From the IMG/VR virus record IMGVR_UViG_3300020203_000404, positions 87,811 to 151,810 of that record: a DNA stretch of 64,000 bases. One strand, written 5' to 3'. The notes beneath the pieces are model-generated. The model was not told the origin of the DNA. It was given only the letters and a program-made list of their open reading frames with translations, and did no database searches. Below are positions 43,819 to 64,000 of this stretch, one piece after another. Each line of letters begins with the position of its first letter. The first letter of the stretch is position 1. The position numbers were made by a program, and so were the translations under genes. The DNA is from a virus.

Positions 43819-44316
43819 TCAAATATTGTGTTGGCAGATTATGGCATCAGGGAAATAGTGTTCGATAATGGCCAAGTAAATACCCCACTCTCCGCCGCCA
43901 AGGCCGCATCCCATCTTGAAGGGGAAGTAAAGAGGAACATCTTTGTCAAGTTTCGGAGCAAGCGACTCAAAGGCTCTTGCCGTGGCATCGTAGCTAGTCA
44001 TTCGCCACCTAGAGGAAATGTAACCTTGGCCAAAAACGTTTGCGATTTTGAGGTACTTGTGATTAGGTACCGTCCACATGAACGTTTTGCCAAGCATCAC
44101 GTCGTTAGCAAGGTCTTCTGTAAGATAACCACTGAGACGTTCGTTATCTACTGACTTAATCCACTTGGCAATACAATCTTGATATTCTTTTTCAAGACCT
44201 GGGAACTTCTTGGCGAGTGCGTAGGCGATGCCGCCCCCCATGATGCCTTGGCAGTTGACCTGATGGAAGAGAACGCCATCCGTGAGAGCAAGCATGTCCT
44301 GTTTGATGATCTTCAT
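43819..44316 (-). CDS. Macrodomain protein
   Basis: HQVNCQGIMGGGIA, ANVFGQ, MGCGLGGGEW. Confidence 0.92.
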   Translation of the reverse strand: MKIIKQDMLALTDGVLFHQVNCQGIMGGGIAYALAKKFPGLEKEYQDCIAKWIKSVDNERLSGYLTEDLANDVMLGKTFMWTVPNHKYLKIANVFGQGYISSRWRMTSYDATARAFESLAPKLDKDVPLYFPFKMGCGLGGGEWGIYLAIIEHYFPDAIICQHNI

Positions 44317-44348
44317 GTTCTATAGTATCACGTTGTCCAGTAAAAAGT

Positions 44349-44423
44349 TGGTACTCCTACCAGGATTCGAACCTGGACGCTTTGTTTAGAAGACAAAGAT
44401 GCTGTCCATTACATCATAGGAGT
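44349..44423 (-). tRNA. tRNA-Arg(UCU)
   Basis: TTTGT-CTTCTAA-ACAAA arm, TTCGAAT, CCA. Confidence 0.9.
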
Positions 44424-44441
44424 GCGTATGGGCTATTGTTT

Positions 44442-44518
44442 TGGTCGAGCATGTTGGAATTGAACCAACCTAATGTCCTGTTTCCAAAACAGGCGACCCA
44501 CCATGAGTCTGATGCTCG
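44442..44518 (-). tRNA. tRNA-Pro(UGG)
   Basis: CCTGT-TTTGGAA-ACAGG arm, CCA. Confidence 0.85.
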
Positions 44519-44526
44519 AATTGTTT

Positions 44527-44613
44527 TGGCGGAGAGGCAGAGGAATCGAACCCCGGACCTTGCGATCCCCCCGGTATTCAAAACCAGTTGCCGACCATTC
44601 AGCGGTACCTTCC
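44527..44613 (-). tRNA. tRNA-Ser(UGA), non-canonical 8/4 fold
   Basis: TT-TGA-AT loop, long variable arm, G discriminator, 8-bp bulged acceptor, 4-bp T stem. Confidence 0.8.
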
Positions 44614-44679
44614 GTTTGTTTACATGCTCGCCACGTTGATGTGGTGACTTGAAATAGAAAAGAGCTTCGGCAACGCTCA

Positions 44680-44790
44680 TTAGTTGCTCCCGATCAAAGC
44701 CTTGACGATGAAGAAAAGACCGACCATGCAAGCACACCACCATATAATGTAGGTGATGACGAATGCCCAGAAAGCGGTTTTGACCTTCAT
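44680..44790 (-). CDS. Small membrane peptide (36 aa)
   Basis: MKVKTAFWAFVITYIIWW...; TATCAT-6nt-ATG leaderless promoter upstream. Confidence 0.45.
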   Translation of the reverse strand: MKVKTAFWAFVITYIIWWCACMVGLFFIVKALIGSN

Positions 44791-44920
44791 GTCTCTATGA
44801 TATCACTTTTCAAGCGAAGTGCAAGTATATTTTCAAATTTTGGCGGTAGATCCAGGACTAATTATGTTGGCCACACATATGGCAATGACTGAAAGTCTGG
44901 AAATGGTAAAAAGGTCTGCA

Positions 44921-45199
44921 TCAGAGTTCGCGAAATTTTTTGTAAGACGACTTGAGCTTACTTTTAAGCACGGAAGAGAAACACCAGTAGCCTAAGAGAA
45001 ACTTATTGATATTAAGAGTAAGTTGGATGAAGCCTATAACGCAGAGAGTTCCAGGCACAAACGCGATCGGAATACAGAGTGGCGAGAGTACCCACCACCA
45101 GGACCAGTCGATGAAGTTCGTTAGCTTGAGGCCGATGAACAGAACAGTGAGTATACCAGCGAAGTTGACGCTATTTCGCTCATAAGTATTATTGGTCAT
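44921..45199 (-). CDS. Small phage membrane protein
   Basis: LTVLFIGLKLTNFIDWSWWWVLSPL motif. Confidence 0.75.
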   Translation of the reverse strand: MTNNTYERNSVNFAGILTVLFIGLKLTNFIDWSWWWVLSPLCIPIAFVPGTLCVIGFIQLTLNINKFLLGYWCFSSVLKSKLKSSYKKFREL

Positions 45200-45306
45200 G
45201 ATTTTGAGTAAAAGTTATTGATTCGTCGCACATTTCTTTGGATTGACCGGCGAGATTACGCATGCTGATATCATAGCTCGCTAAAGCGAGCTAGTCAAGA
45301 AAAAGT

Positions 45307-45391
45307 TGGTAGGAACAGTCGGGATCGAACCGACACGCCGTTAGGCACATCATTTTAAGTGATGAGCGTCTGCCAATTCCGCCATGTCCCC
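45307..45391 (-). tRNA. tRNA-Leu(UAA)
   Basis: CATCA-CTTAAAA-TGATG arm, variable arm, CCA. Confidence 0.92.
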
Positions 45392-45397
45392 GTGTAT

Positions 45398-45474
45398 TGG
45401 TCCGCTATCTAGGAATTGAACCTAGCCCTGAGGTTAATAAGACCCCTGCATGACGACCAGTGTGCTAATAGCGG
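45398..45474 (-). tRNA. tRNA-Ile(UAU)
   Basis: GGGGT-CTTATTA-ACCTC arm; acceptor CCGCTAT/ATAGCGG; CCA. Confidence 0.78.
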
Positions 45475-45909
45475 TCAGTCCAGTGTACAAGCCATTGCAT
45501 TCGAGGTGTTGAACGTGATCGCACCAGAGTTCGTGTCACGGTACCACCACTGAAAAAGGAGCGTCGTGCCAAGCGGCATCAGCGTCAAGTCAACCTGACG
45601 AGTTGCGTTGCCGTTCACGGTAGCAGTCGGCCCACCGACGCGAACGAATTGACCGAGCGGATTGATACACAACGTGCCGTTACCAAAAGGAACGTTGAAC
45701 TGGGTCGTGCCACACGTCAGTTGTGCAAACGACTGAGGCATTGCGTTCGTCAGCGTACAGCCGAGGTTGTTGTCGATTCGCGTTAGCGAGCCGGTGTAGT
45801 CACAATGGGCAACCAATCCAAGAGAATTGGGCTGCGAATCGCAGTAGTTGTAAGCGGAGCCAGCGGAGGCGGTAAGTGCTAGGAGGCACACAGCGATGAT
45901 GTTCTTCAT
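45475..45909 (-). CDS. Secreted protein resembling a Planctomycetota extracellular domain
   Basis: Signal peptide; YC..QPNSLG...PFGNGTLCI...FQWWYRD...FNTSNA; preceded by the cassette-type promoter. Confidence 0.6.
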   Translation of the reverse strand: MKNIIAVCLLALTASAGSAYNYCDSQPNSLGLVAHCDYTGSLTRIDNNLGCTLTNAMPQSFAQLTCGTTQFNVPFGNGTLCINPLGQFVRVGGPTATVNGNATRQVDLTLMPLGTTLLFQWWYRDTNSGAITFNTSNAMACTLD

Positions 45910-45951
45910 GCTTGAATGATACATCATTCTCACGGTTTGTCAAGCAAAAAA

Positions 45952-46557
45952 TCACTTTAAGCCGACGATTGAGCCGGGGGCGATGGTCGCGTCCTGGCCG
46001 ACGATCGCGTTCTCGTCGATGGTCACGTTCCTGCCGATGGTCACGTTCTCGTAGATGAGCACGTATTCGCCGATGGTCACGTTCTCGCCGATGATCGCGT
46101 TCTTGCCGATGTACGAGTACGAGCCGATGTTCGCGTGCTCGCCGATTTTCGAATCCTGGCCGATGTTCGCGTTCTCGCCGATGGTCACGTTCCAGCTGAT
46201 GTTCGCGTTCTTGCCGATGGTCGAGTACGAGCCGATGATCGAGTACGGGGCGATGGTCACGTTCCAGCCGATGGTCGCGTCCCGGTCGATGGTCGCGTCC
46301 CGGTCGATGGTCACGTTCTCGCCGATGGTCACGTTCTCGCCGATGGTCGAGTATGAGCCGATGTACGAGTCCTCGCCGATGGTCGCGTTCCTGCCGATGG
46401 TCGAGTGCGAGCCGATGGTCGCGTTCTCGCCGATGGTCACGTTCGGGCAGATGAGCACGTATTCGCCGATGGTCACGTTCTCGCCGATGGGTACGTTCGA
46501 GCCGACGTTGACCAGAACGGTCTTTCCGTCCGGGTTCGTGTGTGTGATGGTTTTCAT
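45952..46557 (-). CDS. LbH hexapeptide-repeat protein, cassette 1 (201 aa)
   Basis: MKTITHTNPDG cap; IGxxxx repeats. Confidence 0.9.
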   Translation of the reverse strand: MKTITHTNPDGKTVLVNVGSNVPIGENVTIGEYVLICPNVTIGENATIGSHSTIGRNATIGEDSYIGSYSTIGENVTIGENVTIDRDATIDRDATIGWNVTIAPYSIIGSYSTIGKNANISWNVTIGENANIGQDSKIGEHANIGSYSYIGKNAIIGENVTIGEYVLIYENVTIGRNVTIDENAIVGQDATIAPGSIVGLK

Positions 46558-46598
46558 GTTTTAATGATACATCATTCTCGCGGTCTGTCAAGCAAAAA
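46558..46598 (-). promoter_or_regulatory. Cassette promoter (also at 45910, 47259, 47708, 50013, 50372, 50749, 51306, 51773, 52596 on -; 63545, 63922 on +)
   Basis: TTGACA-GACCGCGAGAATGATG-TATCAT-TAAAAC-ATG; variant TTGACG..TATAAT; no Shine-Dalgarno. Confidence 0.85.
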
Positions 46599-47258
46599 TC
46601 ACTTTGAGCCGACGATTGAGCCGGGGGCGATGGTCGCGTTCTTGCTGACGGTCGCGTTCTTGCCGATGGTCGCGTTCCTGCCGATGGTCGCGTTCCTGCC
46701 GATGGTCACGTTCTCGCCGATGGTCGAGTACGAGCCGATGTGCGAACCCTCGCCGATGTGCGAACCCTCGCCGGTGTACGAATCCTCGCCGATGGTCGAG
46801 TACGAGCCGATGATCGCGTTCTTGCCGATGATCGCGTTCGGGCAGATGGTCACGTTCTCGCCGATGGTCACGTTCTCGTAGATGAGCACGTATTCGCCGA
46901 TGGTCACGTATTCGACGATGGTCACGTTCTCGCCGATGATCGCGTTCTTGCCGATGGTCGCGTTCGGGCAGATGGTCGAGTACGAGCCGATGGTCACGTT
47001 CCTGCCGATGATCGCGTTCGGGCAGATGGTCACGTTCTCGCCGATGTTCGCGTATTCGCCGATGGTCACGTTCCAGCCGATGTTCGCGTACTTGCCGATG
47101 TACGAGTACGAGCCGATGGTTGCGTTCTTGCCGATGATCGCGTTCTTGCCGATGCTCGCGTTCTTGCCGATGGTCACGTTCTCGTAGATGGTCACGTTCT
47201 CGCCGACGTTGACTTGAACGGTCTTGCCGTTCGGGTTCGTGTGCGTGATGGTTTTCAT
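46599..47258 (-). CDS. LbH hexapeptide-repeat protein, cassette 2 (219 aa)
   Basis: Same caps and repeats. Confidence 0.9.
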   Translation of the reverse strand: MKTITHTNPNGKTVQVNVGENVTIYENVTIGKNASIGKNAIIGKNATIGSYSYIGKYANIGWNVTIGEYANIGENVTICPNAIIGRNVTIGSYSTICPNATIGKNAIIGENVTIVEYVTIGEYVLIYENVTIGENVTICPNAIIGKNAIIGSYSTIGEDSYTGEGSHIGEGSHIGSYSTIGENVTIGRNATIGRNATIGKNATVSKNATIAPGSIVGSK

Positions 47259-47299
47259 GTTTTCATGATACATCATTCTCGCGGTCTGTCAAGCAAAAA

Positions 47300-47707
47300 T
47301 CACTTTGAGCCGACGATTGAGCCGGGGGTGATGGTCGCGTTCCTGCCGATGGTCGAGTGCGAGCCGATGCTCGCGTTCTTGCCGATGGTCACGTATTCGC
47401 CGATGGTCGAATTGACGCCGATGTACGAGTACAAGCCGATGTACGAGTGCAAGCCGATGGTTGCGTTCTCGCCGATGGTCACGTTCTTGTCGATGGTCGC
47501 GTGCTCGCCGATTTTCGAATCCTGGCCAATGTTCGCGTTCTCGCCGATGGTCACGTTCTCACCGATGTACGAGTCCTCGCAGATGGTCACGTATTCGCCG
47601 ATGGTCACGTTCTCGCAGATGGTTACGCCATAGCCGATGGTTACGTTCTCGCCGACGTTGACTTGAACGGTCTTGCCGTTCGGGTTCGTGTGCGTGATGG
47701 TTTTCAT
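47300..47707 (-). CDS. LbH hexapeptide-repeat protein, cassette 3 (135 aa)
   Basis: Same caps and repeats. Confidence 0.9.
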   Translation of the reverse strand: MKTITHTNPNGKTVQVNVGENVTIGYGVTICENVTIGEYVTICEDSYIGENVTIGENANIGQDSKIGEHATIDKNVTIGENATIGLHSYIGLYSYIGVNSTIGEYVTIGKNASIGSHSTIGRNATITPGSIVGSK

Positions 47708-47748
47708 GTTTTAATGATACATCATTCTCGCGGTCTGTCAAGCAAAAA

Positions 47749-48246
47749 TCACTTTGAGCCGACGGTTGAGCCGGGGGCGATGGTCGCGTCCTGGCCGACG
47801 ATCGCGTTCTTGCCGATGGTCGCGTTCTTGCCGATGGTCGCGTTCTTGCCGATGGTCGCGTTCTTGCCGATGGTCACTTCCCGGCGGATGTGCGAGCCCT
47901 CGCCAATGGTCGCGTCCTGGCCGATGGTCACGTTCTCGCCGATGGTCGCGTTCCTGCCGATAGTCAAGTGCGAGCCGATGGTCGAGTGCGGGCCGATGGT
48001 CACGTTCTCGCCGATGTACGAGTCCTCGCCGATGTACGAGTCCTCGCCGATGGTCGAGTACGAGCCGATGGTCGAGTACGAGTCGATGGTCACGTTCTCG
48101 CCGATGGTCGAGTACGAGCCGATGGTCGCGTATTCGCCGATGGTCACGTTCTCGTCGATGGTCACGTTCTCGTCGATGTACGAATCCTCGCCGACGCTGA
48201 CTTGAACGGTCTTTCCGTTCGGGTTCGTGTGTGTGATGGTTTTCAT
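47749..48246 (-). CDS. LbH hexapeptide-repeat protein, cassette 4 (165 aa)
   Basis: Same caps; ATG 5 nt downstream of the tRNA-Val CCA. Confidence 0.88.
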   Translation of the reverse strand: MKTITHTNPNGKTVQVSVGEDSYIDENVTIDENVTIGEYATIGSYSTIGENVTIDSYSTIGSYSTIGEDSYIGEDSYIGENVTIGPHSTIGSHLTIGRNATIGENVTIGQDATIGEGSHIRREVTIGKNATIGKNATIGKNATIGKNAIVGQDATIAPGSTVGSK

Positions 48247-48251
48247 TGTAT

Positions 48252-48325
48252 TGGTAGGCAATGAGGGAATTGAACCCCCGACTTCTGGATGTAAACCAGG
48301 CGTTTTACCACTAGACTAATCGCCC
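48252..48325 (-). tRNA. tRNA-Val(UAC)
   Basis: TT-TAC-AT loop, CCA. Confidence 0.9.
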
Positions 48326-48333
48326 GTGCTAAG

Positions 48334-48660
48334 TCAATCCCAAAGATGGAAAAAGTGCTCTCGGAACAGATTGAGGCCAGTTTCAACCTCAGTCCGCTCT
48401 TCCTCAGTCAGCATGTATATCGCACCATCTGAATCGACAATCAGCTTGAATGCCCTATGCATCTTTTCAAGCATGACAAGCCACGCTTCGTGACCGCCCT
48501 CCAACCCCATTGGAAAGCCATGATTATAAGTGTCAATAAAAGCTCGCAGACGAGGCTCGATGAATGCAGCGACTGTATTATTAAGAGACCACAATTCGCT
48601 ATCGTCAAATCCGCGAGTAAGACGTTGCCATAAGAAGTGTATCTTGCGAGATAATTTCAT
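48334..48660 (-). CDS. Hypothetical phage protein
   Basis: QRLTRGFDDSELWSL...GLNLFREHFFHLWD, recalled as a common phage motif. Confidence 0.7.
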   Translation of the reverse strand: MKLSRKIHFLWQRLTRGFDDSELWSLNNTVAAFIEPRLRAFIDTYNHGFPMGLEGGHEAWLVMLEKMHRAFKLIVDSDGAIYMLTEEERTEVETGLNLFREHFFHLWD

Positions 48661-48678
48661 ATTAATCCTAAAGTGTAT

Positions 48679-48755
48679 TGGAGCCATCGGTGGGCCACGA
48701 TCCCACAACCTATCGCTTACAAAGCGATTGCACCGCCTACTTGTGCTACGATGGC
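48679..48755 (-). tRNA. tRNA-Thr(UGU)
   Basis: ATCGC-TTTGTAA-GCGAT arm; atypical T loop ATCGTGG. Confidence 0.85.
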
Positions 48756-48881
48756 ATTTTCTTTTTACGAATGCGTTTAGCATTCTTATATGATGTTGGT
48801 AGACCGTGACGGTGATGCTCTATCATACACCCTCTTACGAGGGTGTGGGCTTGAAAAAGAAGAATTACATTTTCAAGTGTA

Positions 48882-48945
48882 TGGTGCCTCCCCGACGACC
48901 TTCTGCTCTTCACGCAGACGCTACTACTAACTGAGCTACAGAAGC
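48882..48945 (-). pseudogene. tRNA-Phe(GAA) lacking the T arm
   Basis: D arm and TCTGC-GTGAAGA-GCAGA intact; only 64 nt. Confidence 0.7.
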
Positions 48946-48961
48946 AAAAGCATGCTTGTAT

Positions 48962-49039
48962 TGGTGGGGAAGGCAGGACTCGAACCTGCGACCTTAAGGG
49001 TATACACCCTTGTTGCTCTCCCAACTGAGCTACTTCCCC
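48962..49039 (-). tRNA. tRNA with irregular anticodon arm (identity undetermined)
   Basis: Perfect acceptor, D and T arms; AAGGG-TGTATA-CCCTT with a 6-nt loop. Confidence 0.6.
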
Positions 49040-49062
49040 ATAGTGGAGTTAATGTACTTTGA

Positions 49063-49139
49063 TGGTGGACCGGGGGAGTGACGATCTCCCGACTTTCGGA
49101 TGCAAACCGAATGTTTTACCAACTTAGAACTACCAGCCC
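49063..49139 (-). tRNA. tRNA-Ala(UGC)
   Basis: TT-TGC-AT loop, G3:U70, atypical T loop ATCGTCA. Confidence 0.88.
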
Positions 49140-49149
49140 ATCCTAGCCG

Positions 49150-49503
49150 TTAAACACCAAAGAGACGCATATCTTTACTATGTTTTTCAAGAGCATTTTC
49201 TAATTCCATAATGATCTTGCCATAGACAAGCTCTAAATGGTCAGGGACATTGTGACGATGATTCGAACCACGCTTTTCGTGGTACAGGTTCAATACAGCG
49301 GTGATCCGCAGAGCATTGTCACGCACCTTACGGGCCGCAACCCATGATCGCTTCACGTTGTCAGGCGTTTTAGCGTGATCTAACCAGTAAGAACTATGAC
49401 CAACTCTCCAGTAAGAATTGTGACCAACCTTATAAGGCCCCGTCTTGCGTTCCTTTTTGAGAGCCTTTTGGCTCTCAGACATTTGCTTAATTAGGTTCTT
49501 CAA
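49150..49503 (-). CDS. Hypothetical protein
   Basis: ORF with VGHNSYW/VGHSSYW duplication. Confidence 0.55.
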   Translation of the reverse strand: MKNLIKQMSESQKALKKERKTGPYKVGHNSYWRVGHSSYWLDHAKTPDNVKRSWVAARKVRDNALRITAVLNLYHEKRGSNHRHNVPDHLELVYGKIIMELENALEKHSKDMRLFGV

Positions 49504-49552
49504 TGCGATCTGCGTATTTATAACGATTCACTCCGTTTATTGTTGAGCTTGA

Positions 49553-49613
49553 AAAGCCAAGTGGGGCTCGAACCCACGCACTGACCGTTTGGAGCGGTCT
49601 GAACTATACCCGC
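49553..49613 (-). pseudogene. Chimeric tRNA remnant (Gly-like 5' end fused to Trp(CCA) anticodon and T arms)
   Basis: GCGGGTATAGTTCA joined to GACCG-CTCCAAA-CGGTC..GGTTCGAGCC; acceptor does not pair. Confidence 0.55.
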
Positions 49614-49623
49614 AAAATTGGAA

Positions 49624-49887
49624 TCACACGGGTTTCCAAATCTTAGTTATTGTTTCTACTTGCTTTACTTCAGTACAGTCAAGAAAAAACTCAAAGTCAT
49701 AATCAGTAAAATAACTTCCCGTACGGCTAACACATAGCTCGTAATAAGGACCGTCACCTTCTCTAAATATGACACTAAGATTAGACCATTTACCTTGGTC
49801 TTGCCACTCTCCGATTTCTATAACCGTATACTTATCGGAGTCGTCGGTGAGGATTTCAGCCGCTTCTGATTCTGTTAATTGCATCAT
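49624..49887 (-). CDS. Hypothetical phage protein
   Basis: GAGG RBS; RTGSYFTDY...EVKQVE. Confidence 0.65.
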   Translation of the reverse strand: MMQLTESEAAEILTDDSDKYTVIEIGEWQDQGKWSNLSVIFREGDGPYYELCVSRTGSYFTDYDFEFFLDCTEVKQVETITKIWKPV

Positions 49888-50012
49888 AGTTTCCTCTGGT
49901 AAATCAATGCTTGAAAGATGGTGGATCTTGAGCCGGGGGCGATGGTCGCGTGCTCGCCGACGTTGACTTGAACGGTCTTGCCGTTCGGGTTCGTGTGCGT
50001 GATGGTTTTCAT
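49884..50012 (-). pseudogene. Collapsed cassette 5 (caps plus about one repeat, 42 aa)
   Basis: MKTITHTNPNGKTVQVNVGEHATIAPGS followed by an unrelated tail. Confidence 0.8.
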
Positions 50013-50053
50013 GTTTTAATGATACATCATTCTCGCGGTCTGTCAAGCAAAAA

Positions 50054-50371
50054 TCACTTTAGGCCGACGATTGAGCCGGGGGCGATGGTCGCGTTCTTGC
50101 CGATGTACGAGTACGAGCCGATGGTCACGTTCTTGCCGATGATCGCGTTCGGGCAGATAGTCACGTATTCGCCGATGTTCGCGTTCTTGCCGATGTTCGC
50201 GTGCTTGCCGATGTACGAGTACGAGCCGATGTACGAGTGCGAGCCGATGGTCGAGTCCTCGCAGATGGTCACGTATTCGCCGATGATCGAGCCATCGGCG
50301 ATGGTCACGTTCTTGCCGACGCTGACTTGAACGGTTTTGCCGTTCGGGTTCGTGTGTGTGATGGTTTTCAT
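50054..50371 (-). CDS. LbH hexapeptide-repeat protein, cassette 6 (105 aa)
   Basis: Same caps and repeats. Confidence 0.9.
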   Translation of the reverse strand: MKTITHTNPNGKTVQVSVGKNVTIADGSIIGEYVTICEDSTIGSHSYIGSYSYIGKHANIGKNANIGEYVTICPNAIIGKNVTIGSYSYIGKNATIAPGSIVGLK

Positions 50372-50412
50372 GCTTCAATTATACATTATTCTCGCGGCTC
50401 GTCAAGCAAAAA

Positions 50413-50748
50413 TCACCTTAAGCCGACGGTTGAGCCATCGGCGATGGTCGCGTTCCTGCCGATGATCGAGTACGAGTCGATGGTCACGTTCTTGCCGACG
50501 GTCGAGTACGAGCCGATGTTCGCGTACTCGCCGATGTTCACGTACGAGCCGATGTTCACGTACGAGCCGATGTTCGCGTACGAGCCGATGTTCACGTACG
50601 AGCCGATGTTCGCGTACGAGCCGACGTTCGAGCCCCAGCTGATGGTTACGTGCTCGCCGATTGTCGCGTTCGGGCCGATGTTCGCGTTCGGGCCGACGTT
50701 GACTTGAACGGTCTTGCCGTTCGGGTTCGTGTGCGTGATGGTTTTCAT
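50413..50748 (-). CDS. LbH hexapeptide-repeat protein, cassette 7 (111 aa)
   Basis: Same caps; IGSY(A/V)N-rich. Confidence 0.9.
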   Translation of the reverse strand: MKTITHTNPNGKTVQVNVGPNANIGPNATIGEHVTISWGSNVGSYANIGSYVNIGSYANIGSYVNIGSYVNIGEYANIGSYSTVGKNVTIDSYSIIGRNATIADGSTVGLR

Positions 50749-50789
50749 GTTTTAATGATACATCATTCTCGCGGTCTGTCAAGCAAAAA

Positions 50790-51305
50790 TCACTTTGAGC
50801 CGACGGTTGAGCCATCGGCGATGGTCGCGTCCTGGCCGACGATCGCGTCCCGGACGATGTACGAGTTCTTGCCGATGATCGCGTTCTTGCCGATGGTCGC
50901 GTGCTCGCCGATGGTCACGTTCCTGCCGATGTTCGCGTTCTCGCAGATGAGCACGTATTCGCCGATGTACGAGTTCTCGCGGATGATCACGTTCTCGCCG
51001 ATGGTCACGTTCTTGCCGATGGTCACGTTCTTGCCGATGATCGCGTTCTTGTCGATGGTCGCGTTCCTGCCGATGGTCACGTTCTCGTAGATGAGCACGT
51101 ATTCGCCGATGGTCACGTTCTCGCCGATGTTCGCGTTCTTGCGGATGGTCGCGTTCGGGCAGATGGTCGAGCACGAGCCGACGTGCGAACCATCGGCGAT
51201 GTTCGCGTATTCGCCGATGGTCACGTTCCAGCCGATGGTCACGTTCTCGCCGACGTTGACTTGAACGGTCTTGCCGTTCGGGTTCGTGTGTTTGATTGTA
51301 TTCAT
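50790..51305 (-). CDS. LbH hexapeptide-repeat protein, cassette 8 (171 aa)
   Basis: Same caps and repeats. Confidence 0.9.
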   Translation of the reverse strand: MNTIKHTNPNGKTVQVNVGENVTIGWNVTIGEYANIADGSHVGSCSTICPNATIRKNANIGENVTIGEYVLIYENVTIGRNATIDKNAIIGKNVTIGKNVTIGENVIIRENSYIGEYVLICENANIGRNVTIGEHATIGKNAIIGKNSYIVRDAIVGQDATIADGSTVGSK

Positions 51306-51346
51306 GTTTTAATGATACATCATTCTCGCGGTCTGTCAAGCAAAAG

Positions 51347-51772
51347 TCACTTTGAGCCGACGATTGAGCCGGGGGCGATGGTCGCGTCCTGGCCGACGAT
51401 CGCGTCCCGGACGATGTACGAGTTCTCGCCGATGTTCGCGTTCTCGCCGATGATCGCGTTCTTGCCGACGGTCGAGTACGAGCCGATGGTCACGTTCTTG
51501 CCGATGGTCGCGTTCTCGCCGATGGTCACTTCCCGGCGGACGTGCGAGCCCTCGCCAATGGTCGCGTCCTGGCCGATGGTCACGTTCTCACCGATGGTCA
51601 CTTCCCGGCGGACGTGCGAGCCCTCGCCAATGGTCGCGTTCTCGCCGATGGTCGCGTTCTCGCAGATGGTCACGTTCTCGCCGATGGTCACGTTCTTGCC
51701 GATGGTCACGTTCTTGCCGACGCTGACTTGAACGGTTTCGCCGTTCGGGTTCGTGTGCGTGATGGTTTTCAT
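51347..51772 (-). CDS. LbH hexapeptide-repeat protein, cassette 9 (141 aa)
   Basis: Same caps and repeats. Confidence 0.9.
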   Translation of the reverse strand: MKTITHTNPNGETVQVSVGKNVTIGKNVTIGENVTICENATIGENATIGEGSHVRREVTIGENVTIGQDATIGEGSHVRREVTIGENATIGKNVTIGSYSTVGKNAIIGENANIGENSYIVRDAIVGQDATIAPGSIVGSK

Positions 51773-51786
51773 GTTTTAATGATACA

Positions 51787-52257
51787 TCATTCTCGCGGTC
51801 TGTCAAGCAAAAAACACTTTGGGCCGACGGTTGAGCCATCGGCGATGGTCGCGTTCCTGCCGATGATCGAGTACGAGTCGATGGTCACGTTCTTGCCGAC
51901 GGTCGAGTACGAGCCGATGATCGCGTTCTTGCCGATGGTCGCGTTCTCGCCGATGGTCGCGTTCTCGCCGATGATCGCGTTCTGGCCGATGTACGAGTAC
52001 GAGCCGATGGTTGCGTTCAAGCCGATGGTCGCGTTCCTGCCGATGGTCGCGTTCTCGCCGATGATCGCGTTCGGGCAGATGATCACGTATTCGACGATGG
52101 TCGAGTACGAGTCGATGTTCGAACCGACGCCGATGTTCGCGTTCTCGCCGATGGTCACGTTCTCGCCGATGATCGCGTTCTTGGCGATGGTCACGTTCTC
52201 GCCGACGCTGACTTGAACGGTTTCGCCGTTCGGGTTCGTGTGTGTGATGATATTCAT
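51787..52257 (-). CDS. LbH hexapeptide-repeat protein, cassette 10 (147 aa + 9-aa extension)
   Basis: Usual TGA is TGT here, so the frame runs into the next promoter. Confidence 0.88.
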   Translation of the reverse strand: MNIITHTNPNGETVQVSVGENVTIAKNAIIGENVTIGENANIGVGSNIDSYSTIVEYVIICPNAIIGENATIGRNATIGLNATIGSYSYIGQNAIIGENATIGENATIGKNAIIGSYSTVGKNVTIDSYSIIGRNATIADGSTVGPKCFLLDRPRE

Positions 52258-52295
52258 GTCTTAGGATACCCTATAAGTGCGAAAAAAGCAAAAAA

Positions 52296-52595
52296 TCACT
52301 CTGGGCCGATGTACGAGTACAAGCCGATGTACGAGTCCTTACCGATGGTCACGTGCTCGCCGGTGGTCACGTGCTCACAGATGGTCACGTTCTCGCCGAT
52401 GGTCGAGCCATCGCCGATGATCGCGTGCTTGCCGATGTTCGAGCCCTGGCCGATGTTCAAGTCCTCGCCGATGGTCGAACCCCGACCGATTGTCACGAAC
52501 TTGCCGATGGTCACGTTCTCGCCGATGGTCACGTTCTTGCCGACGCTGACTTGAACGGTTTTACCGTTCGGGTTCGTGTGTGTGATGGTTTTCAT
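52296..52595 (-). CDS. LbH hexapeptide-repeat protein, cassette 11 (99 aa, most divergent)
   Basis: Same N-cap, different C-end (IGPE). Confidence 0.88.
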   Translation of the reverse strand: MKTITHTNPNGKTVQVSVGKNVTIGENVTIGKFVTIGRGSTIGEDLNIGQGSNIGKHAIIGDGSTIGENVTICEHVTTGEHVTIGKDSYIGLYSYIGPE

Positions 52596-52719
52596 GCTTC
52601 GATTATACATCATTCTCGCGGCTCGTCAAGCAAAAAATCACTCTAAAAAGCGGTCGCGACTCTCAATGGCCTACACCAACACAGAATCTCATTTTTTTCT
52701 TTTCAAGTTGTCTTGAAGA

Positions 52720-53610
52720 TCAGCACGACTTCTTGGGACGGCGACACGACGCCTCATGCTTCTTGCCGCCCTTCGTACCGCAGTGCGAGCAAGGACTACG
52801 CTTGACGGTTCGTGTCGTCGTCGTGGTAACTTCGACAACATCTTCCTCCTCATATGCCGGAACAGGTTCCGGCATAGGATACATCGGACTCTCGATCTGC
52901 CCCTCAGCCTCAGCGAGCACTTTGTAACGACACACACGCAGCTTGGAACAGTTGTGGTCCTTAGGCACCGCGATGCAGTCGGCTGGATTCACTTTCACGA
53001 GCACAGTGCGAGCGGCAAAGCTGCGAGCGTACTCCAACGTACCGACGTGGTAGCCACGGCTACATTCGTTGCGACGATCAGGATCGACATTCTGACGAGG
53101 CATTTCAATGACTTCGCCAATTGCATTCTTAACCATACCAGAGTACTGATCGAACCAGTCGTCACGCACGCCCTTATAGCCGATGAAGCAACCATCTTCC
53201 GTGATCGGAAACTGACTACAGCCATTGTTGGTGTTTTCCAGAAAGTCGTAGAGTTCCGCGACGGCCATCGGCATCGGGTTGGCCATCAGGTTTTCAAGGA
53301 ATCGAATCAGCGGATCAGTCGGCAGTCCTTCTCGAATGAAGTCGAGAATGCGTTCCGTCACCGTATTGTGCATCGGCAGATCGCCGTAGAACACTTGGCC
53401 ATGCTTGACCGTGACGGGGCTATTTCTCATGGTCGCCGCAATGGTCGCCGGAATGTCGATGAGAGATTCCAGATCGTCGTGTCGCTTTGCCTTAATCGCT
53501 TCCACGATTAAGACGTAGTTTGGATGACTCTTCCCGATCGAGAAGGTCTTGGCATCGAGAATCAGGGTGATGTTGCCATCGCCCGTAACGAGACTTGCAA
53601 AGTTTTTCAT
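52720..53610 (-). CDS. rIIB: RIIB-like protein
   Basis: ITEDGCFIGYKGV, CSRGYHVG, VKVNPAD..VP.D..KLRVCRY. Confidence 0.88.
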   Translation of the reverse strand: MKNFASLVTGDGNITLILDAKTFSIGKSHPNYVLIVEAIKAKRHDDLESLIDIPATIAATMRNSPVTVKHGQVFYGDLPMHNTVTERILDFIREGLPTDPLIRFLENLMANPMPMAVAELYDFLENTNNGCSQFPITEDGCFIGYKGVRDDWFDQYSGMVKNAIGEVIEMPRQNVDPDRRNECSRGYHVGTLEYARSFAARTVLVKVNPADCIAVPKDHNCSKLRVCRYKVLAEAEGQIESPMYPMPEPVPAYEEEDVVEVTTTTTRTVKRSPCSHCGTKGGKKHEASCRRPKKSC

Positions 53611-53613
53611 AGT

Positions 53614-55539
53614 TCAGACGGCCTCAATCAATTTGATGTACTGGATCACTGGTTCCATAGCAATGTTACCTCGGTACCAGTCAATGCCACCCAAAATCGG
53701 GTATTTTTTGAAGAATTCTTTCTGATAACGAGGAGCGGTCGGCATCTTGATGTCAAAAACCTGACACAAGCGGCTGTAAACGCTCATGTTACTGACATTC
53801 GCCCCGTAAACCTTAATCAGATTGTCACACTCTGTCGAGAGTCCAGCAATTTTCTCAATGAGAAACTTATGGCTAATGTCATCCCCATCATTTTGAAATC
53901 TCGACAGAGCAAACATATCAAGATCAGCCAAAAACTCTTCGGTCATGTCCTTGGCGACAGCGGAACATTCGATGATACCGTGCTTGACACGAAAAGAGTC
54001 GTATTGCTTGGCAGGGATTCCGTAAATTCGCTTGAAGCCGAACGTGTTCGCGATGATATGAACGTCCTGCGGAGCGACCTTTTGGCCGTTCCAGATAACC
54101 CAATTACCATCACGCGGCACACAGCAGGCGTCATTAGCGTCAACGTCGGTAGCCGCGTTAATGCCATACCACTCAAAGCTGTTATTGAGAAGCTTGATCG
54201 GCATGCTACGCACTGTCGTACCTGCGGTTCGAGCCTTACGCGGCACATCCGGCAACAGACTCAGCTTGGTCATCACGTCGCCAAACAATTCAGTAAAGCG
54301 AGCGGCGTCCTCAATCTTCACAAGATAGAACCGATTATGGGTACACGCTCGCATGTATTGACGAAGGCGACCCTTCATCTTCTGCGTCATGTCCGCATCA
54401 TCTTCAATGAAGATCATTTGATCAATATGTCCGCCAATATGGAATTCACCGTGCAGGCTATGCATGAAGAGTTTTTTGTCAAGACGAAGAGAGCAGGATT
54501 GCATTGAATACTTGTCCTTCTCTTCGTATTTGATTGGATCGGTTCCATGAGGCGAAAGTTCGCTCACCAAGTTACGGTACTTGGCTAGAGCCCGCAGCTT
54601 TTGAAGGACCGTCCCTTCGTTCGCGACACGACGTTCAAATTCGGCCCGCACCACAACGGCAGCCTCGTTAAGAGCAGCGGTTATCTTCGCGATCGTCCTG
54701 TCGTCGTAATTAACCTCTTCGCGACTAGCGGCAATAGAAACCGCACCTATCGGCAAGTTCAAGATAATAATGGCATTGTGGTAAAACGGGCAGGCAAAAT
54801 CGCGATCAGAGACGGCGTAGCAAACCTGACCCATCATGACGTTAAGACGCGATGAAACAGGTGCTTTATGATTTATGTACAACGAGAATTCACTCGTTTC
54901 AAATTCCGGCTTCTCGCTATCGAAGTTGAGTTGGGCACCGACAATGTTCGGACGCACCTTGAAAAAGGTGTAGACACGTTGAGCGGCCCTGACGAAAATC
55001 TGAGCGTCGCCCGGCTTCGTGTTGATGCGGACTTCCAAGCCGTTCGGCTCGTCCGTATCAACTGTGTTCAAAAGAGCGAGCGTCGGAATCGACGACTCAT
55101 TCTTGAAGGCGGAGTACGTGTACTTCCGTTTGTCCCAAATGGATATAATCGTGAATTGGTCCGTGTACGCAAAGGGGGACTTGCTGCCGATACCTAGACA
55201 GCCAGTAAAGTCATCGCTATTCGTGCGAGTACTTTTGCCGTATTTCTTGTATACGGTTTCGATTTGAGTGGGCGACAAGCCCGTACCGTAGTCACGGATC
55301 GACAACCAAGGCTCTAGTTGATTTGGAAGATGAACATCGAACGGCTGATCGGCACAGCCAGCATCCGTATGAGAGTCGGATGCATTCGTGGACAATTCAC
55401 GAACGATAGCTCGCGGCTCGTCAGTGTAAACCTTCTTTGAAAGCAAGGCAAACATTGCCGCGTTTGTTTCGAAGGAGTACGTGCCTTCTTGGAAGGTGCC
55501 AGAGCGTTCGACTTCGAGAGTTGTTTCAGTGAGTTTCAT
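53614..55539 (-). CDS. rIIA: RIIA-like protein (N-terminal GHKL ATPase)
   Basis: RELSTNASD, IRDYGTGL, STRT..GCLGIGSKSPFAY. Confidence 0.9.
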   Translation of the reverse strand: MKLTETTLEVERSGTFQEGTYSFETNAAMFALLSKKVYTDEPRAIVRELSTNASDSHTDAGCADQPFDVHLPNQLEPWLSIRDYGTGLSPTQIETVYKKYGKSTRTNSDDFTGCLGIGSKSPFAYTDQFTIISIWDKRKYTYSAFKNESSIPTLALLNTVDTDEPNGLEVRINTKPGDAQIFVRAAQRVYTFFKVRPNIVGAQLNFDSEKPEFETSEFSLYINHKAPVSSRLNVMMGQVCYAVSDRDFACPFYHNAIIILNLPIGAVSIAASREEVNYDDRTIAKITAALNEAAVVVRAEFERRVANEGTVLQKLRALAKYRNLVSELSPHGTDPIKYEEKDKYSMQSCSLRLDKKLFMHSLHGEFHIGGHIDQMIFIEDDADMTQKMKGRLRQYMRACTHNRFYLVKIEDAARFTELFGDVMTKLSLLPDVPRKARTAGTTVRSMPIKLLNNSFEWYGINAATDVDANDACCVPRDGNWVIWNGQKVAPQDVHIIANTFGFKRIYGIPAKQYDSFRVKHGIIECSAVAKDMTEEFLADLDMFALSRFQNDGDDISHKFLIEKIAGLSTECDNLIKVYGANVSNMSVYSRLCQVFDIKMPTAPRYQKEFFKKYPILGGIDWYRGNIAMEPVIQYIKLIEAV

Positions 55540-55574
55540 GCCAGTATCTTACCCCTTAGAGTCTAGCCCGTCAA
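55540..55574 (-). promoter_or_regulatory. Leaderless promoter of rIIA
   Basis: TTGACG-17-TAAGAT-6nt-ATG. Confidence 0.7.
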
Positions 55575-55845
55575 GTGGAAATTTTGGCCCATAGATCAAA
55601 CGCAGTCGCAGAAATTCTTGGTACTCGTAATATTGAGTCTGTTCTTTGCTACGCAGAAGAATAGTTTCAATTGCCGTCGCTCCTGCCATTAGCAAGGTCT
55701 CGAAACATTCGTGCCCTTTGTTAAAGACAATATATTCGGTTTGCCGATCTCCAACCACAAAATAAATACGTCTGCAATTGTCCAAAGCTCCCCGATGCAC
55801 GACAATTTCTCTATCCATTAATGGTCTCGCGTTCTTTTCTAGCAA
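55549..55845 (-). CDS. Hypothetical protein
   Basis: ORF coupled to the upstream gene. Confidence 0.4.
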   Translation of the reverse strand: MLEKNARPLMDREIVVHRGALDNCRRIYFVVGDRQTEYIVFNKGHECFETLLMAGATAIETILLRSKEQTQYYEYQEFLRLRLIYGPKFPLDGLDSKG

Positions 55846-56570
55846 TACAGCAACTCAAGCGACTCGCCATTCCATAGAATAGCCTGATGCTGTTCGATAC
55901 ACGGAGCACACGCCCACGTTGTACCTTCGGTTTCACCAGCTTGATACGTGTGATGATGTCCAAACACCCAGTGCCTGGGCTTAAACTGCCCTCGAATAGC
56001 GTTCAGAGCTTGCTTATCCGATCGCCCAAATTCCTTTTTGTGCGAACCATAAGGAAAGTCGAATGGAAACTCGTGCGAGATCACAAGGTCGATTGTCTGC
56101 TGATAATCCAACGCCTCCATGACTTGACGATAGGTGATTGACTCTTGAGGCCACCACGACTTACCTTGGATCCGATGATCCTTGTCGATGGATGAAGCAC
56201 CGCCGAAAAACATCACGGTGTAGTCTGTCAGTCGCAGGACTGATCCACGCGGCTGATAGATCATGCCCGACTGAAACGCCCCTTGATCTTTTTCAAGCTG
56301 ATCGTGATTCTCATGATTACCATCAATCCAATAGAATGGCAATGCTTCTGCCTTAGTAATCGTGGACGGATTCATATACGCTTTGTGAAACGTAAAGGGG
56401 TTACAGAATCCAGTGCCGTTAGCCTGAATGTCGCTACCCGGCCACGCATAGCCAAAATCTCCCACTTGAATCATATGGGTGATATCAGGGTGCTGCTTGA
56501 GAGCACGAGCAATCGTGATGTTGAGATCGCTCCACATTCCGTGGACATCCCCCAAGATTAAGACCTTCAT
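55839..56570 (-). CDS. Calcineurin-like metallophosphoesterase
   Basis: GDVHG, VGDFG, DGNHE, SHE, FGHHH. Confidence 0.92.
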   Translation of the reverse strand: MKVLILGDVHGMWSDLNITIARALKQHPDITHMIQVGDFGYAWPGSDIQANGTGFCNPFTFHKAYMNPSTITKAEALPFYWIDGNHENHDQLEKDQGAFQSGMIYQPRGSVLRLTDYTVMFFGGASSIDKDHRIQGKSWWPQESITYRQVMEALDYQQTIDLVISHEFPFDFPYGSHKKEFGRSDKQALNAIRGQFKPRHWVFGHHHTYQAGETEGTTWACAPCIEQHQAILWNGESLELLYC

Positions 56571-56748
56571 GATGTCAAGTCTTATTCGTTTTCAAGCTCA
56601 GATTCCCGCCCAGAGAACGCCCAGTACACAAACAATGTAAATGGAATGATAGGCCACATCAGTGACACGAAACCTCGCACCCAGCTATTGTCAGTGTCGG
56701 CACGATCCCAGGCGAGAGGCATACCGAGCACGTAGAGGATCCAAAACA

Positions 56749-57822: not shown

Positions 57823-57857
57823 GCCTCTATTATACCCACTAAACAGCTATTTGTCAA
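57823..57857 (-). promoter_or_regulatory. Consensus leaderless promoter
   Basis: TTGACA-17-TATAAT-6nt-ATG. Confidence 0.85.
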
Positions 57858-58168
57858 GTGACTTCCACAAAACGCAGCGACCCAAGAAATAAGCCACTGC
57901 GATCAACATGAAGTAGTGTTCATATAGCACGAAAAAGAGAGCAGTGATGGGCAGTAGAAACAAACATACGCTTAACACGATGGAGCCGAGCAGAAGACTC
58001 AGGGCGTGGTGCTTCACTTCACTGTCACCATAGCATCTAGAGGCACAAAAACGATACAATTATTGGTTTCAAGACAGAAAACCCTGGCGTTAGGTCCACC
58101 GTGCAATTTCAAGAACGTCTTGCCGTCATAAGTAAACCACGTTGCGTTTCTTAGAGACCAAAAGAACT

Positions 58169-58655: not shown

Positions 58656-58976
58656 AATTGGTAATATTAGCGGTAACGATTGTCACTTTTGCCGTCACGA
58701 AAACATAATCACTTTTGTAACGACGTATGTTAATCTTCCAGGTCTTCGCCATATTGGGCGAGCGGCAGAGGTATAGGTTTGGGTGTTGCGGTCGGCCATA
58801 TTTTCTTGACGCCCTTAATGACTAAGCCGCCAACAATGAGGCCGCCAAGGATGACGGAGTACACCATACACATTCACTCACCATCCTTTTCGAGTTGTTC
58901 GATTATCATCTAATAGGGCTCGTTTAGATCGAAACTGTAGTTTGATTTGCATGTCTTAGGATACCCCATCTAGGGG

Positions 58977-63146: not shown

Positions 63147-63147
63147 T

Positions 63148-63391: not shown

Positions 63392-63585
63392 AATTCTTGA
63401 AAAGGAGTTGACAGCCGATCTATACGGCTGCCATTTTGGCAGCCATAATCCTACGGTGGCCCCCGGTCCTCCACCATGACGCTGAACTATATCACACGAA
63501 ACGTGTTACGTCAAGCCGATGGCTCAACCGTCGGCTCAAAGTGATTTTTGTTTGACAGACCGCGAGAATGATGTATCATTAAAAC

Positions 63586-63921
63586 ATGAAAACCATCACG
63601 CACACGAACCCGAACGGCAAGACCGTTCAAGTCAACGTCGGCTCGAACGTAACCATCGGCTATGGCGTAACCATCTGCGAGAACGTGACCATCGGCGAAT
63701 ACGCGAACATCGTCGATGGTTCGCACGTCGGCTCGTACTCGACCATCGGCAAGAACGCGACCATCGGCAAGAACGCGATCATCCGCGAGCACGCGACCAT
63801 CGGCAAGAACGCGATCATCCGCGAGCACGCGACCATCGGCGAGAACGCGACCATCGGCAAGAACTCGTACATCGGCAAGAACGCGACCATCGCCCCCGGC
63901 TCAATCGTCGGCTCAAAGTGA
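63586..63921 (+). CDS. LbH hexapeptide-repeat protein, cassette 12 (111 aa)
   Basis: Same caps and repeats. Confidence 0.9.
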   Translation: MKTITHTNPNGKTVQVNVGSNVTIGYGVTICENVTIGEYANIVDGSHVGSYSTIGKNATIGKNAIIREHATIGKNAIIREHATIGENATIGKNSYIGKNATIAPGSIVGSK

Positions 63922-63962
63922 TTTTTGCTTGACAGACCGCGAGAATGATGTATCATTAAAAC

Positions 63963-64000
63963 ATGAAAACCATCACGCACACGAACCCGAACGGCAAGAC
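63963..64000 (+). CDS. LbH cassette 13 (truncated by window end)
   Basis: MKTITHTNPNGK. Confidence 0.8.
   Translation, partial: MKTITHTNPNGK

Follow-up and report, generated by a model that had tools for sequence, protein, structure and literature searches.

The window analysed here (64,000 bp) is the last 64 kb of the 151,810 bp genome of an uncultured Antarctic phage, which is 96 % complete and whose terminal 100 nt repeat its initial 100 nt with one mismatch. Adjoining rIIA and rIIB, amid tRNA genes and small accessory genes, are divergent arrays of short genes made up of hexapeptide repeats, referred to here as cassettes. Ten intact cassettes and one 42-aa remnant lie on the minus strand within 45910–52640, and a plus-strand array begins at 63586 and runs on over the contig ends. 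Genome-wide there are 24 complete copies of 99–243 aa, all 24 differing from one another. The preliminary description of an array of self-promoted, variable beta-helix cassettes is upheld, as the ORFs, the N-cap (MKTITHTNPNGKTVQV on the minus-strand ORFs), the Hexapep matches and the promoters were all recovered; it had, however, placed eleven cassettes in the interval, where ten full copies are found, the eleventh length being that of a plus-strand copy.

All features from here to the end of the minus array are on the minus strand. The first copy downstream of rIIB, cassette 1 (99 aa; 52296..52595; Hexapep E 6e-17), carries an IGPE cap, the standard C-cap, previously thought constant, being missing; its type A promoter (52602..52629; TTGACG-16-TATAAT) lies 6 nt ahead of the ATG and its allele in L027 encodes an identical protein with three synonymous differences. 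Cassette 2 (51787..52257) had been listed as 147 aa, but its TGA is lost and it reads 156 aa, i.e. 147 aa and nine read-through residues, the L027 allele being 147 aa; it has a type B promoter at about 52263–52291 (TTGCTT-17-TATCCT, 5 nt ahead of the ATG). Then follow cassettes 3 (141 aa; 51347..51772; promoter 51779–51806), 4 (171 aa; 50790..51305; promoter 51312–51339; same protein in L015), 5 (111 aa; 50413..50748; promoter 50755–50782) and 6 (105 aa; 50054..50371; promoter 50378–50405), of which the last has a variant with a type B promoter in L015. The 42-aa ORF at 49884..50012 (promoter 50019–50046), in which the N-cap is followed by a single unit and the half of a C-cap, is a deletion remnant fused to what lies upstream of an 85-aa gene, itself equipped with a normal ribosome-binding site; the remnant is also present in L026, and a near-identical one that starts MST is found in L015.

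The array is interrupted at 48252..49902 by genes for several tRNAs (Val and Thr among them) and by three small genes to which no function is assigned, a segment 86–98 % identical to the relative G001. Beyond it, cassette 7 (165 aa; 47749..48246) has no promoter of its own, its ATG lying 5 nt past the CCA end of the tRNA-Val, a layout repeated in L015, L017 and L026. Cassettes 8 (135 aa; 47300..47707; promoter 47714–47741), 9 (219 aa; 46599..47258; promoter 47265–47292) and 10 (201 aa; 45952..46557; promoter 46564–46591; same protein in L021) complete the minus array, and a further type A promoter (45916..45943) precedes a non-cassette gene (45475–45906) whose 144-aa product is unrelated to the cassettes and, having a signal peptide, is presumably secreted. 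On the plus strand, the first unit (63552..63921) comprises a type A promoter and a 111-aa cassette (63586–63921), and the next (63929..64000) a promoter and the first 12 codons (ATG 63963) of a cassette truncated where the contig stops. The rule that every full copy is 6n+3 aa long is valid inside the SK/LK/LR and PE/LE/FE cap classes, but the IGPDA class is 6n+4.

Promoters and junctions

The stop-to-ATG spacer is 41 nt and contains TTGACA-16 nt-TATCAT, with 11/12 consensus matches. A promoter of this kind had been proposed for the typical unit, and this is correct for most units, the exceptions being cassette 7 and the type B site of cassette 2. A scan of 8.3 kb returned 11 promoter-like sites, ten of them minus-strand sites with 11/12 matches, compared with 5.4 ± 2.4 in shuffles. 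The −10 box lies exactly 6 nt from the ATG at 21 type A sites and 5 nt from it at type B sites, where the −35/−10 spacing is 17 nt (cassette 2) or 16 nt (type B copies in L007). No terminator or significant hairpin was found between cassettes at type A junctions, the sole junctions that combine the promoter with a hairpin and T-run being the type B ones located at the start of the genome. Identical promoter geometry precedes unrelated genes genome-wide, for example those for 357-aa and 410-aa proteins, and what had been taken as a constant repeat is an ordinary promoter and two protein caps.

The promoters resemble host sigma-70 sites. Because the −10 box ends 5–6 nt before the ATG, the cassette mRNAs are probably leaderless: a host-type sigma-70 promoter would start transcription at the A of the AUG or the nucleotide beside it. 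Leaderless mRNA requires a 5'-terminal AUG, and this would explain a promoter for each gene and no ribosome-binding site; a sigma-70-like promoter is found on most units and ribosome-binding sites are absent from the cassette genes. Nearly every copy would thus be a separate transcription unit. In Deinococcus-Thermus, leaderless mRNA arises from a −10 motif that typically lies about 6–7 bp ahead of the ORF (PMC12340547), and the cassettes resemble these genes in having a TANNNT-type −10 box 5–6 nt before the ATG and no ribosome-binding site, but they belong to a phage, also have a full −35 box, and have a predicted start site.

The conserved cap-promoter-cap junctions extend over approximately 100–127 nt, though the median exact identity per junction pair is only 28 nt. 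With up to 127 identical nt common to junctions, contigs built from short reads may be chimeric in part, and the order of cassettes is hence uncertain. A close parallel in arrangement is offered by the PeSL regulatory cassettes, each an early promoter coupled to a stem-loop, in the hyperplastic regions of T4-type phages (Arbiol et al. 2010, PMC2839356; PMC4122927). In both, repeated strong sigma-70-like promoters flank non-essential genes adjoining rIIA/rIIB, and recombination between the repeats leads to gene gain, loss and replacement among close relatives. Unlike PeSL, type A junctions have no stem-loop terminator, the repeat reaches into the protein-coding caps, and it flanks paralogous members of a single family where PeSL flanks unrelated ORFans.

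Protein family and predicted fold

All listed cassettes in the window match Pfam Hexapep (PF00132; E 6e-17 to 3e-44), and the closest phage families (phrog_5353, 2154, 36281, 5070 and 7964) are all of unknown function. Every NCBIfam enzyme model scored far under its cut-off, no acyltransferase model being reached. These observations are in keeping with the earlier view that the proteins lack loops and extra domains and are not acyltransferases. The cassettes share with LpxA, LpxD, GlmU, DapD and gamma-carbonic anhydrase the [IV]-G-x-x-[AVS]-x hexad, and with the hexapeptide acyltransferase superfamily the triangular solenoid with six-residue sides. They differ in having no loop insertions, extra domain or conserved catalytic residue, and in their size (99–243 aa), own N- and C-caps and 24 copies. 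The cassette protein therefore appears to be a capped, uninterrupted, non-enzymatic hexapeptide solenoid. Short, solenoid-only proteins from phage accessory regions (the above PHROGs and YdcK-type PF18836 solenoids) are similar, and small phage solenoids can likewise be multi-copy, with promoter-bearing junctions and 18-nt length slippage. In contrast to the PF18836 type, the cassettes match Hexapep, with no PF18836 match at E 0.01, and are distinguished by an HTNP(N/D)G cap and by promoters predicted to give leaderless mRNA. Very distant homologs from another phage and from a bacterial chromosome carry HTNPDG-type caps too, and the N-cap is likely to act at the protein level.

The repeat has a six-residue periodicity and predicted models reach pLDDT 77–86. 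Predictions conflict on the handedness of the rod: the two AlphaFold models (one of cassette 8) superpose well on right-handed helices only, fitting bactofilins at 2.1–2.6 Å over 89–102 residues and LbH enzymes at about 12 Å, whereas the ESM Atlas model of cassette 8 is left-handed-like, with TM 0.81 to a DapD-type LbH.

Variation among copies and relatives

The buried positions of the unit are fixed, with I/V at i in 96 % of units, G at i+1 in 78 % and A/V/S at i+4 in 94 %, while variation falls at the exposed i+2, i+3 and i+5, so that the diversified surfaces envisaged earlier are indeed seen. The 484 units comprise 153 amino-acid types and only 171 nucleotide types; codon-position entropy is 0.30 at position 3 versus 1.08 at position 1. 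GC3 is 0.93 in cassettes versus 0.51–0.63 in rIIA, rIIB and the ribonucleotide reductase gene, for which GC-biased gene conversion or codon optimisation for a GC-rich host are our guesses. Differences between alleles are 65 non-synonymous and 3 synonymous, against approximately 17 synonymous expected (P 8e-6), and no nonsense codon occurs in 1039 units (291 variant unit types), where about 10 were expected. Selection would preserve buried residues, purge nonsense mutations and favour change at exposed residues, though the non-synonymous excess could stem partly from swapped pre-existing units, not new mutations under selection.

It had been asked whether the array is invariant among relatives, and it varies in both copy number and alleles. 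G001 has one cassette versus four at one locus and none versus six at another, with flanks 85–98 % identical. Metagenomes from Antarctic lakes and mats contained 29 loci with further variants, and 27 of these taken with the two phages yielded 72 cassettes representing 57 distinct proteins. Some alleles are 100 % identical save for 18- or 36-nt indels, and paralogs have blocks of up to seven units in common, most shuffles giving 2–3. Copies are reshuffled between closely related phages. Rod length would shift when 18-nt units slip in register, whereas blocks, promoters and whole genes would be swapped as paralogs undergo gene conversion or recombine, also at the cap-promoter-cap junctions. Comparison of relatives indicates a repertoire that changes passively, these processes being sufficient. 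Bacterial contingency loci and repeat-variable surface or antifreeze families likewise exhibit in-frame unit slippage, tandem paralogs and exposed-residue variation, but the cassettes are predicted to be cytoplasmic and have no phase-variable on/off switching or ice-binding face.

The layout of constant repeat and variable insert, together with the non-synonymous excess, had suggested an undescribed diversification system, and a dedicated machine akin to DGRs, integrons or CRISPR arrays was considered. We regard this as scarcely credible, as no reverse transcriptase was found in the genome (96 % complete), inspection of the neighbouring genes showed no recombinase gene beside the arrays, and variants arise through gain or loss of units and exchange of blocks rather than targeted base changes. 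A TnpB insertion, missing from the relative, is the sole mobile-element gene in the vicinity. In-register slippage and paralog gene conversion would produce all of the variation, and therefore no special machine is needed, nor does the phage appear to possess one, and the CRISPR/integron analogy fails. Equally remote is an assembly artefact in which repeat mis-assembly inflated a few genes into arrays. Contig ends are often inside junctions and the L021 and L027 contigs link cassettes from opposite arrays of the present genome, but the 24 copies are all distinct, assemblies made independently from different samples contain the same cassettes and several of the same pairs of neighbours, and identical stretches at junctions are mostly short (see above).

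Possible roles of the cassette proteins

No cassette protein has a signal peptide, as stated previously, and the products are most likely early and cytoplasmic. Defence-system models matched no cassette or neighbour gene. Largely neutral or selfish amplification, driven by a recombinogenic junction and 18-nt repeats, with copies tolerated and their diversity functionally meaningless, would be consistent with the 100–127 identical nt common to junctions, with indels that are exact unit multiples and so keep frame by mechanism, with the remnant and the stop-loss copy, and with the far fewer copies at two loci in the relative. It is nevertheless unlikely given the missing nonsense codons, the strong shortage of synonymous differences, the conservation of buried and variability of exposed positions, and the retention of a strong promoter by almost every copy. 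More doubtful still is that the cassettes poison or mimic, in a dominant-negative manner, the hexapeptide-helix proteins of the host (such as LpxA, LpxD, GlmU, DapD or carboxysome CcmM/CcmN), a special case of the binder idea that would work via side-by-side helix association. LpxA and LpxD are the nearest solved sequences (E 1e-14), the NCBIfam CcmN model gave a weak match under its cut-off (E 4.5e-4), and structural comparison ranked first the CcmM-CcmN complex (Z 13.3, though with an rmsd of 12 Å), where one helix protein is bound by a second that is small and non-catalytic. Such similarity is generic to all hexapeptide proteins, the phage lacks psbA, and one conserved host target would not need about 57 different surfaces.

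A polymer or scaffold, be it a right-handed helix of the bactofilin kind or a decoration of the virion, is improbable to a similar degree; in it, the constant ends would allow rods of different length to join end to end. Both AlphaFold models fit bactofilins, and small viral solenoid clusters in the Atlas are sometimes auto-named 'polymer-forming cytoskeletal protein', which with scores of 0.87–0.89 is only a lead. Against this, Bactofilin Pfam gave no match at E 0.01 where Hexapep reached 3e-44, the ESM model is left-handed-like, and the promoters are early-type, not late. Conserved caps, which the cassettes carry, normally prevent end-to-end association. Regular beta-helices with threonine ladders bind ice, and a role in ice binding or other cold adaptation is suggested by the Antarctic lake and mat origin of all relatives, by Thr at 56 % of exposed i+5 positions and by the spruce budworm antifreeze protein among the fold rows (Z 9.7–11.6, rmsd about 11 Å). 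We consider this very improbable: ice-binding faces are conserved, whereas here the exposed positions are the variable ones, a Thr-enriched face beyond shuffling of own units was found in 0/49 cassettes, and a secretion signal is absent.

The reading we prefer, tentatively and as something short of probable, is that the cassettes are phage-specific, heavily amplified, small, capped, non-catalytic beta-helix rods, leaderless and passively diversified, that serve as host-directed binders or decoys. They would act stoichiometrically, their diversified surfaces meeting variable host targets, and we infer that such binding, early and in the cytoplasm, may serve to take over the host or to counter its defences.

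The cassette arrays and their relatives

The source virus contig (151,810 bp, estimated to be 96 % complete), of which the window is the final 64 kb, carries genes for ribonucleotide reductase, RNA ligase, tRNA nucleotidyltransferase, rIIA and rIIB, together with approximately 10 tRNA genes and an island of sugar-modifying genes. The array of small hexapeptide-solenoid gene cassettes reported in the preliminary description is real, and includes ten intact cassettes on the minus strand. Six of these lie directly downstream of rIIA-rIIB (window 52595 down to 50054, minus) and are followed by a 42-aa remnant (49884-50012, minus), then by a 1.65-kb stretch containing tRNAs and three small genes, and then by the four further cassettes (48246 down to 45952, minus). 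A divergent, plus-strand array starts at 63586 and extends past the contig end. As window positions 63901-64000 match the first 100 nt of the contig with one mismatch over the 100 nt, and the match sits inside a cassette junction, the plus array resumes at the genome start and reaches approximately 13.3 kb. Hence, the nominally linear contig probably either closes on itself or broke at a repeat. Genome-wide there are 24 complete copies (42–243 aa), each different from all of the others.

Five of the six reading frames are open through the cassettes (window 45800-52650, both strands) because the GC content at third codon positions (GC3) is 93 %, and long spurious ORFs consequently appear in ORF lists, for example 45800-46591 (minus) and 46740-47633 (plus). 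The only known RNA families that Rfam found in window 44000-64000 were tRNAs. In both this phage (window 48962-49039, minus) and its close relative (L006:5191-5268), ARAGORN called a tRNA whose anticodon (gtat) has four bases, and Rfam scored it as a tRNA at 51.7 bits. The relative also has a tRNA with the anticodon CTA (L006:5953-6028, minus), a possible amber suppressor, the anticodon and T arms of which match a degenerate tRNA-Trp(CCA)-like remnant at window 49551-49625 (minus) that receives no tRNA call from Rfam.

The close relative is represented by a 107-kb contig, with flanks 85–98 % identical to those in this phage. At one locus it has a single cassette versus the four found here, and at a second it has three unrelated genes and a tRNA-Tyr but none of the six cassettes; its contig, too, stops within the plus array. 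The array is thus not invariant among relatives, in keeping with the variability proposed initially. A set of 29 metagenome loci (Antarctic lake and mat samples) contributes more variants, swapped promoters and altered cassette orders, bringing the totals to 72 cassettes and 57 distinct proteins. The orders in two of these loci, L021 and L027, join cassettes that sit in opposite arrays in this genome, and reflect either inversion via recombination between inverted junctions or chimeric assembly. Pairs of junctions share up to 127 identical nucleotides (median 28).

Protein family, fold and distant homologues

All copies are strongly matched by the Pfam Hexapep model (PF00132; E 6e-17 to 3e-44), and show the superfamily trait of [LIV]-G-x4 hexapeptides in tandem, position i+4 being occupied by a small residue. 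In the profile of 49 proteins, 96 % of units have I or V at position i, 78 % have G at i+1 and 94 % have A, V or S at i+4, while i+2 (E/K/S/R/W and others), i+3 (N/Y/H/D/G) and i+5 (T/I/N/Y) vary. The cassette proteins therefore have a fixed buried core and a diversified surface. Their net charge spans −12 to +4, making a uniform role as DNA mimics unlikely.

In agreement with what had been proposed from the sequence, the proteins do not look like ordinary acyltransferases. All curated NCBIfam enzyme models scored below their cut-offs (the best at 174 bits against a cut-off of 207, most far lower), and the hexads run unbroken from cap to cap, lacking the loops that build the active site and the extra domains of the left-handed beta-helix (LbH) acyltransferases. 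Membership of that group (LpxA, LpxD, GlmU, DapD, CysE etc.) was rejected on these grounds. The YdcK-type beta-solenoid model PF18836 was absent at E 0.01 in the four cassettes searched, NF040481 was not among the 25 best of the 31–55 NCBIfam matches listed per cassette, and there was no Pfam match to bactofilin (PF04519) at E 0.01. The phage families matched are those without an assigned function, the best being phrog_5353 (E 3e-46); the match to phrog_5070 was weak (E 3.5e-12).

Predicted structures are confident solenoids with six-residue sides (pLDDT 86.5 and 77 for two AlphaFold models), though the models disagree on handedness. Both AlphaFold models superpose on the right-handed bactofilin structures 6RIA and 2N3D at 2.1–2.6 Å, whereas against LbH chains the rmsd is approximately 12 Å despite Z-scores of 12–15, which we read as a mirror-image relation, the Z-score being distance-based. 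In contrast, the ESM Atlas model for that protein has a TM score of 0.81 to a DapD-type LbH. Sequence homology favours the left-handed fold. The three-copy (trimer) prediction scored 0.00, which is not evidence either way, and Foldseek found no match in the PDB at E 0.001.

A nucleotide search of a phage collection found no match among cultured phages, and protein searches of cultured phages yielded only generic hexapeptide matches, in Aeromonas and Thermus phages. Thermus phage phiYS40 proved a false lead, as the nearest relatives of the rIIA protein are others; the closest rIIA match (33 % identity) is in an uncultured 595-kb phage. As a clue to the host, psbA is not present in the phage. 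A large protein search produced only generic acyltransferases at approximately 35 % identity and a single capped relative, P0004. When profiles were searched exhaustively, the HTNP(N/D)G cap turned up in singletons that are very distant homologs and have an added C-terminal domain of approximately 60 aa, resembling only unnamed small phage proteins; a further capped homolog, P0134, is encoded in a bacterial chromosome and does not include this domain. Retention of the cap in such distant homologs indicates that it is a feature of the protein, and most simply it would be a helix end-cap. One homolog with both cap and C-terminal domain sits in another, unrelated phage (contig L047, 5743-7351), where a pentapeptide-repeat protein is encoded downstream of it after a single small gene, so that an early-gene block has two solenoid proteins of different kinds as near neighbours.

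Promoters and putative leaderless expression

The 41-nt spacer between cassettes has the structure TGA-TTTTTGC-TTGACA-16 nt-TATCAT-TAAAAC-ATG (type A). Six nucleotides separate the end of the −10 box from the ATG, no ribosome-binding site is included, and the A of the ATG would be the expected point of transcription initiation. Junctions of a second kind, TTGCTT-16-TATCCT-5 nt-ATG (type B), have the same geometry, which also recurs at other places in the genome ahead of genes unrelated to the cassettes, such as those for 357-aa and 410-aa proteins. A type A promoter with a 6-nt spacer also precedes the gene for a cysteine-rich protein of 144 aa that has a signal peptide and no family match (window 45475-45943, minus). 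In total, ten sigma-70-like promoter sites at 11/12 matches were found in the interval, with more at the genome start. No terminator-like site lies between cassettes at type A junctions (junction fold z-score +0.81).

This arrangement is the same as that in Deinococcus-Thermus, where a −10 motif typically approximately 6–7 bp before the ORF has been shown experimentally to give leaderless mRNA (PMC12340547). From the promoter geometry and the absence of a ribosome-binding site, we infer that the cassettes are expressed as leaderless mRNAs. An internal cistron that has no ribosome-binding site would not be translated and hence, under leaderless expression, the self-promoted layout would be a necessity rather than a mere curiosity. 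The N-cap codons are strikingly CA-rich, and in Escherichia coli translation of leaderless mRNA is enhanced by CA-rich sequence after the AUG. The sole promoterless cassette (165 aa) begins 5 nt past the encoded CCA end of a tRNA-Val (window 48246-48325, minus), a layout also found in three metagenome contigs. Its position agrees with leaderless expression, as processing of the tRNA could supply the 5′ end and generate a near-leaderless mRNA.

Turnover, selection and possible roles

Though the arrays had been proposed as an undescribed diversification system, they are not a new kind of diversification machine. There was no match to a reverse transcriptase (PF00078) in the genome, as a diversity-generating retroelement would require, and slippage together with homologous recombination is sufficient to produce every variant seen. 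No recombinase gene was seen beside the arrays, though no dedicated search for recombinase families was involved. A TnpB/IS605 OrfB gene (window 60034-61206, plus) that adjoins a tRNA-Met is missing from the close relative; its homologs at 80–93 % identity include P0271, P0274, P0279 and P0288, and the two homolog neighbourhoods inspected look like other large phages.

Some alleles from independent assemblies are 100 % identical apart from an 18- or 36-nt indel, and paralogs have exact blocks of up to seven units in common, even between oppositely oriented arrays, against mostly two or three in shuffled controls. Among published systems, the closest analogue is the PeSL-mediated modular shuffling in hyperplastic regions of T4-type phages (PMC2839356). 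As there, a strong sigma-70-like promoter is repeated and gene content differs from that of a close relative at exactly these places, but the type A junction, unlike PeSL, has no stem-loop terminator joined to the promoter. Some type B junctions are an exception, carrying a hairpin and T-run. At the genome start (L007:8100-12900, plus), type B promoters behind a GC hairpin and T-run resemble T4 PeSL elements and lie between small genes of unrelated kinds and a few cassettes.

The 484 units comprise 153 peptide types and only 171 nucleotide types, with third codon positions nearly invariant (entropy 0.30, versus 1.08 at position 1). The cassettes have a GC3 of 0.93, compared with 0.51–0.63 for the reductase gene, rIIA and rIIB, and with 0.64–0.71 for other putative leaderless genes that neighbour the arrays. 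Our guesses as to the cause are gene conversion biased towards GC, in an array that recombines very often, or codons optimised to suit a GC-rich host. A Deinococcus-Thermus host, or another of high GC content in which leaderless mRNAs are numerous, would be compatible with both the codon usage and the promoter geometry. Among point differences between alleles of independent assemblies, 65 of 68 change the amino acid, where approximately 17 synonymous differences were expected (P 8e-6), and none of 291 unit variants includes a stop (approximately 10 expected).

On the best reading of these sequences, the cassettes would encode early, abundant, cytoplasmic, non-enzymatic rods with surfaces under diversifying selection, putatively acting as binders or decoys when the phage takes over its host or counters host defences. 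Alternatively, the cassettes may have been amplified neutrally, their products may poison host helix proteins, or they may form polymers. Defence-system models found no match. An ice-binding role was rejected as none of 49 cassettes has a Thr-rich face, and N-glycosylation, an idea that arose from the abundance of N-x-T/S motifs and from the island of glycosyltransferase genes in this phage, was rejected as the genome has no GT41-type cytoplasmic N-glycosyltransferase. A fuller version of the binder reading, which we consider conceivable though rather unlikely, is that the arrays are a candidate binder repertoire on one beta-helix scaffold, the rods being constantly reshuffled in length and surface through gene conversion and 18-nt slippage, with different cassettes neutralising different defence or takeover targets; leaderless mRNAs from host promoters would make their products the first proteins after infection.

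Phage genomes commonly carry small solenoid-only proteins, and we know of none with a known function. The cassettes form a genuine phage gene family, striking and uncharacterised, whose expression follows a coherent logic and whose population dynamics are clear. They offer an unusually clear natural experiment: at least 57 variants of the surface occur on a single scaffold, differences that change the amino acid are in strong excess, and copy number differs between near-identical phages. The locus also suggests a rule, whereby leaderless translation would require a promoter for each gene, and these promoters would in turn seed recombination sites through the genome. If the proteins are binders, they would make up a previously undescribed class of factors for takeover or counter-defence, as well as a scaffold library ready for use.
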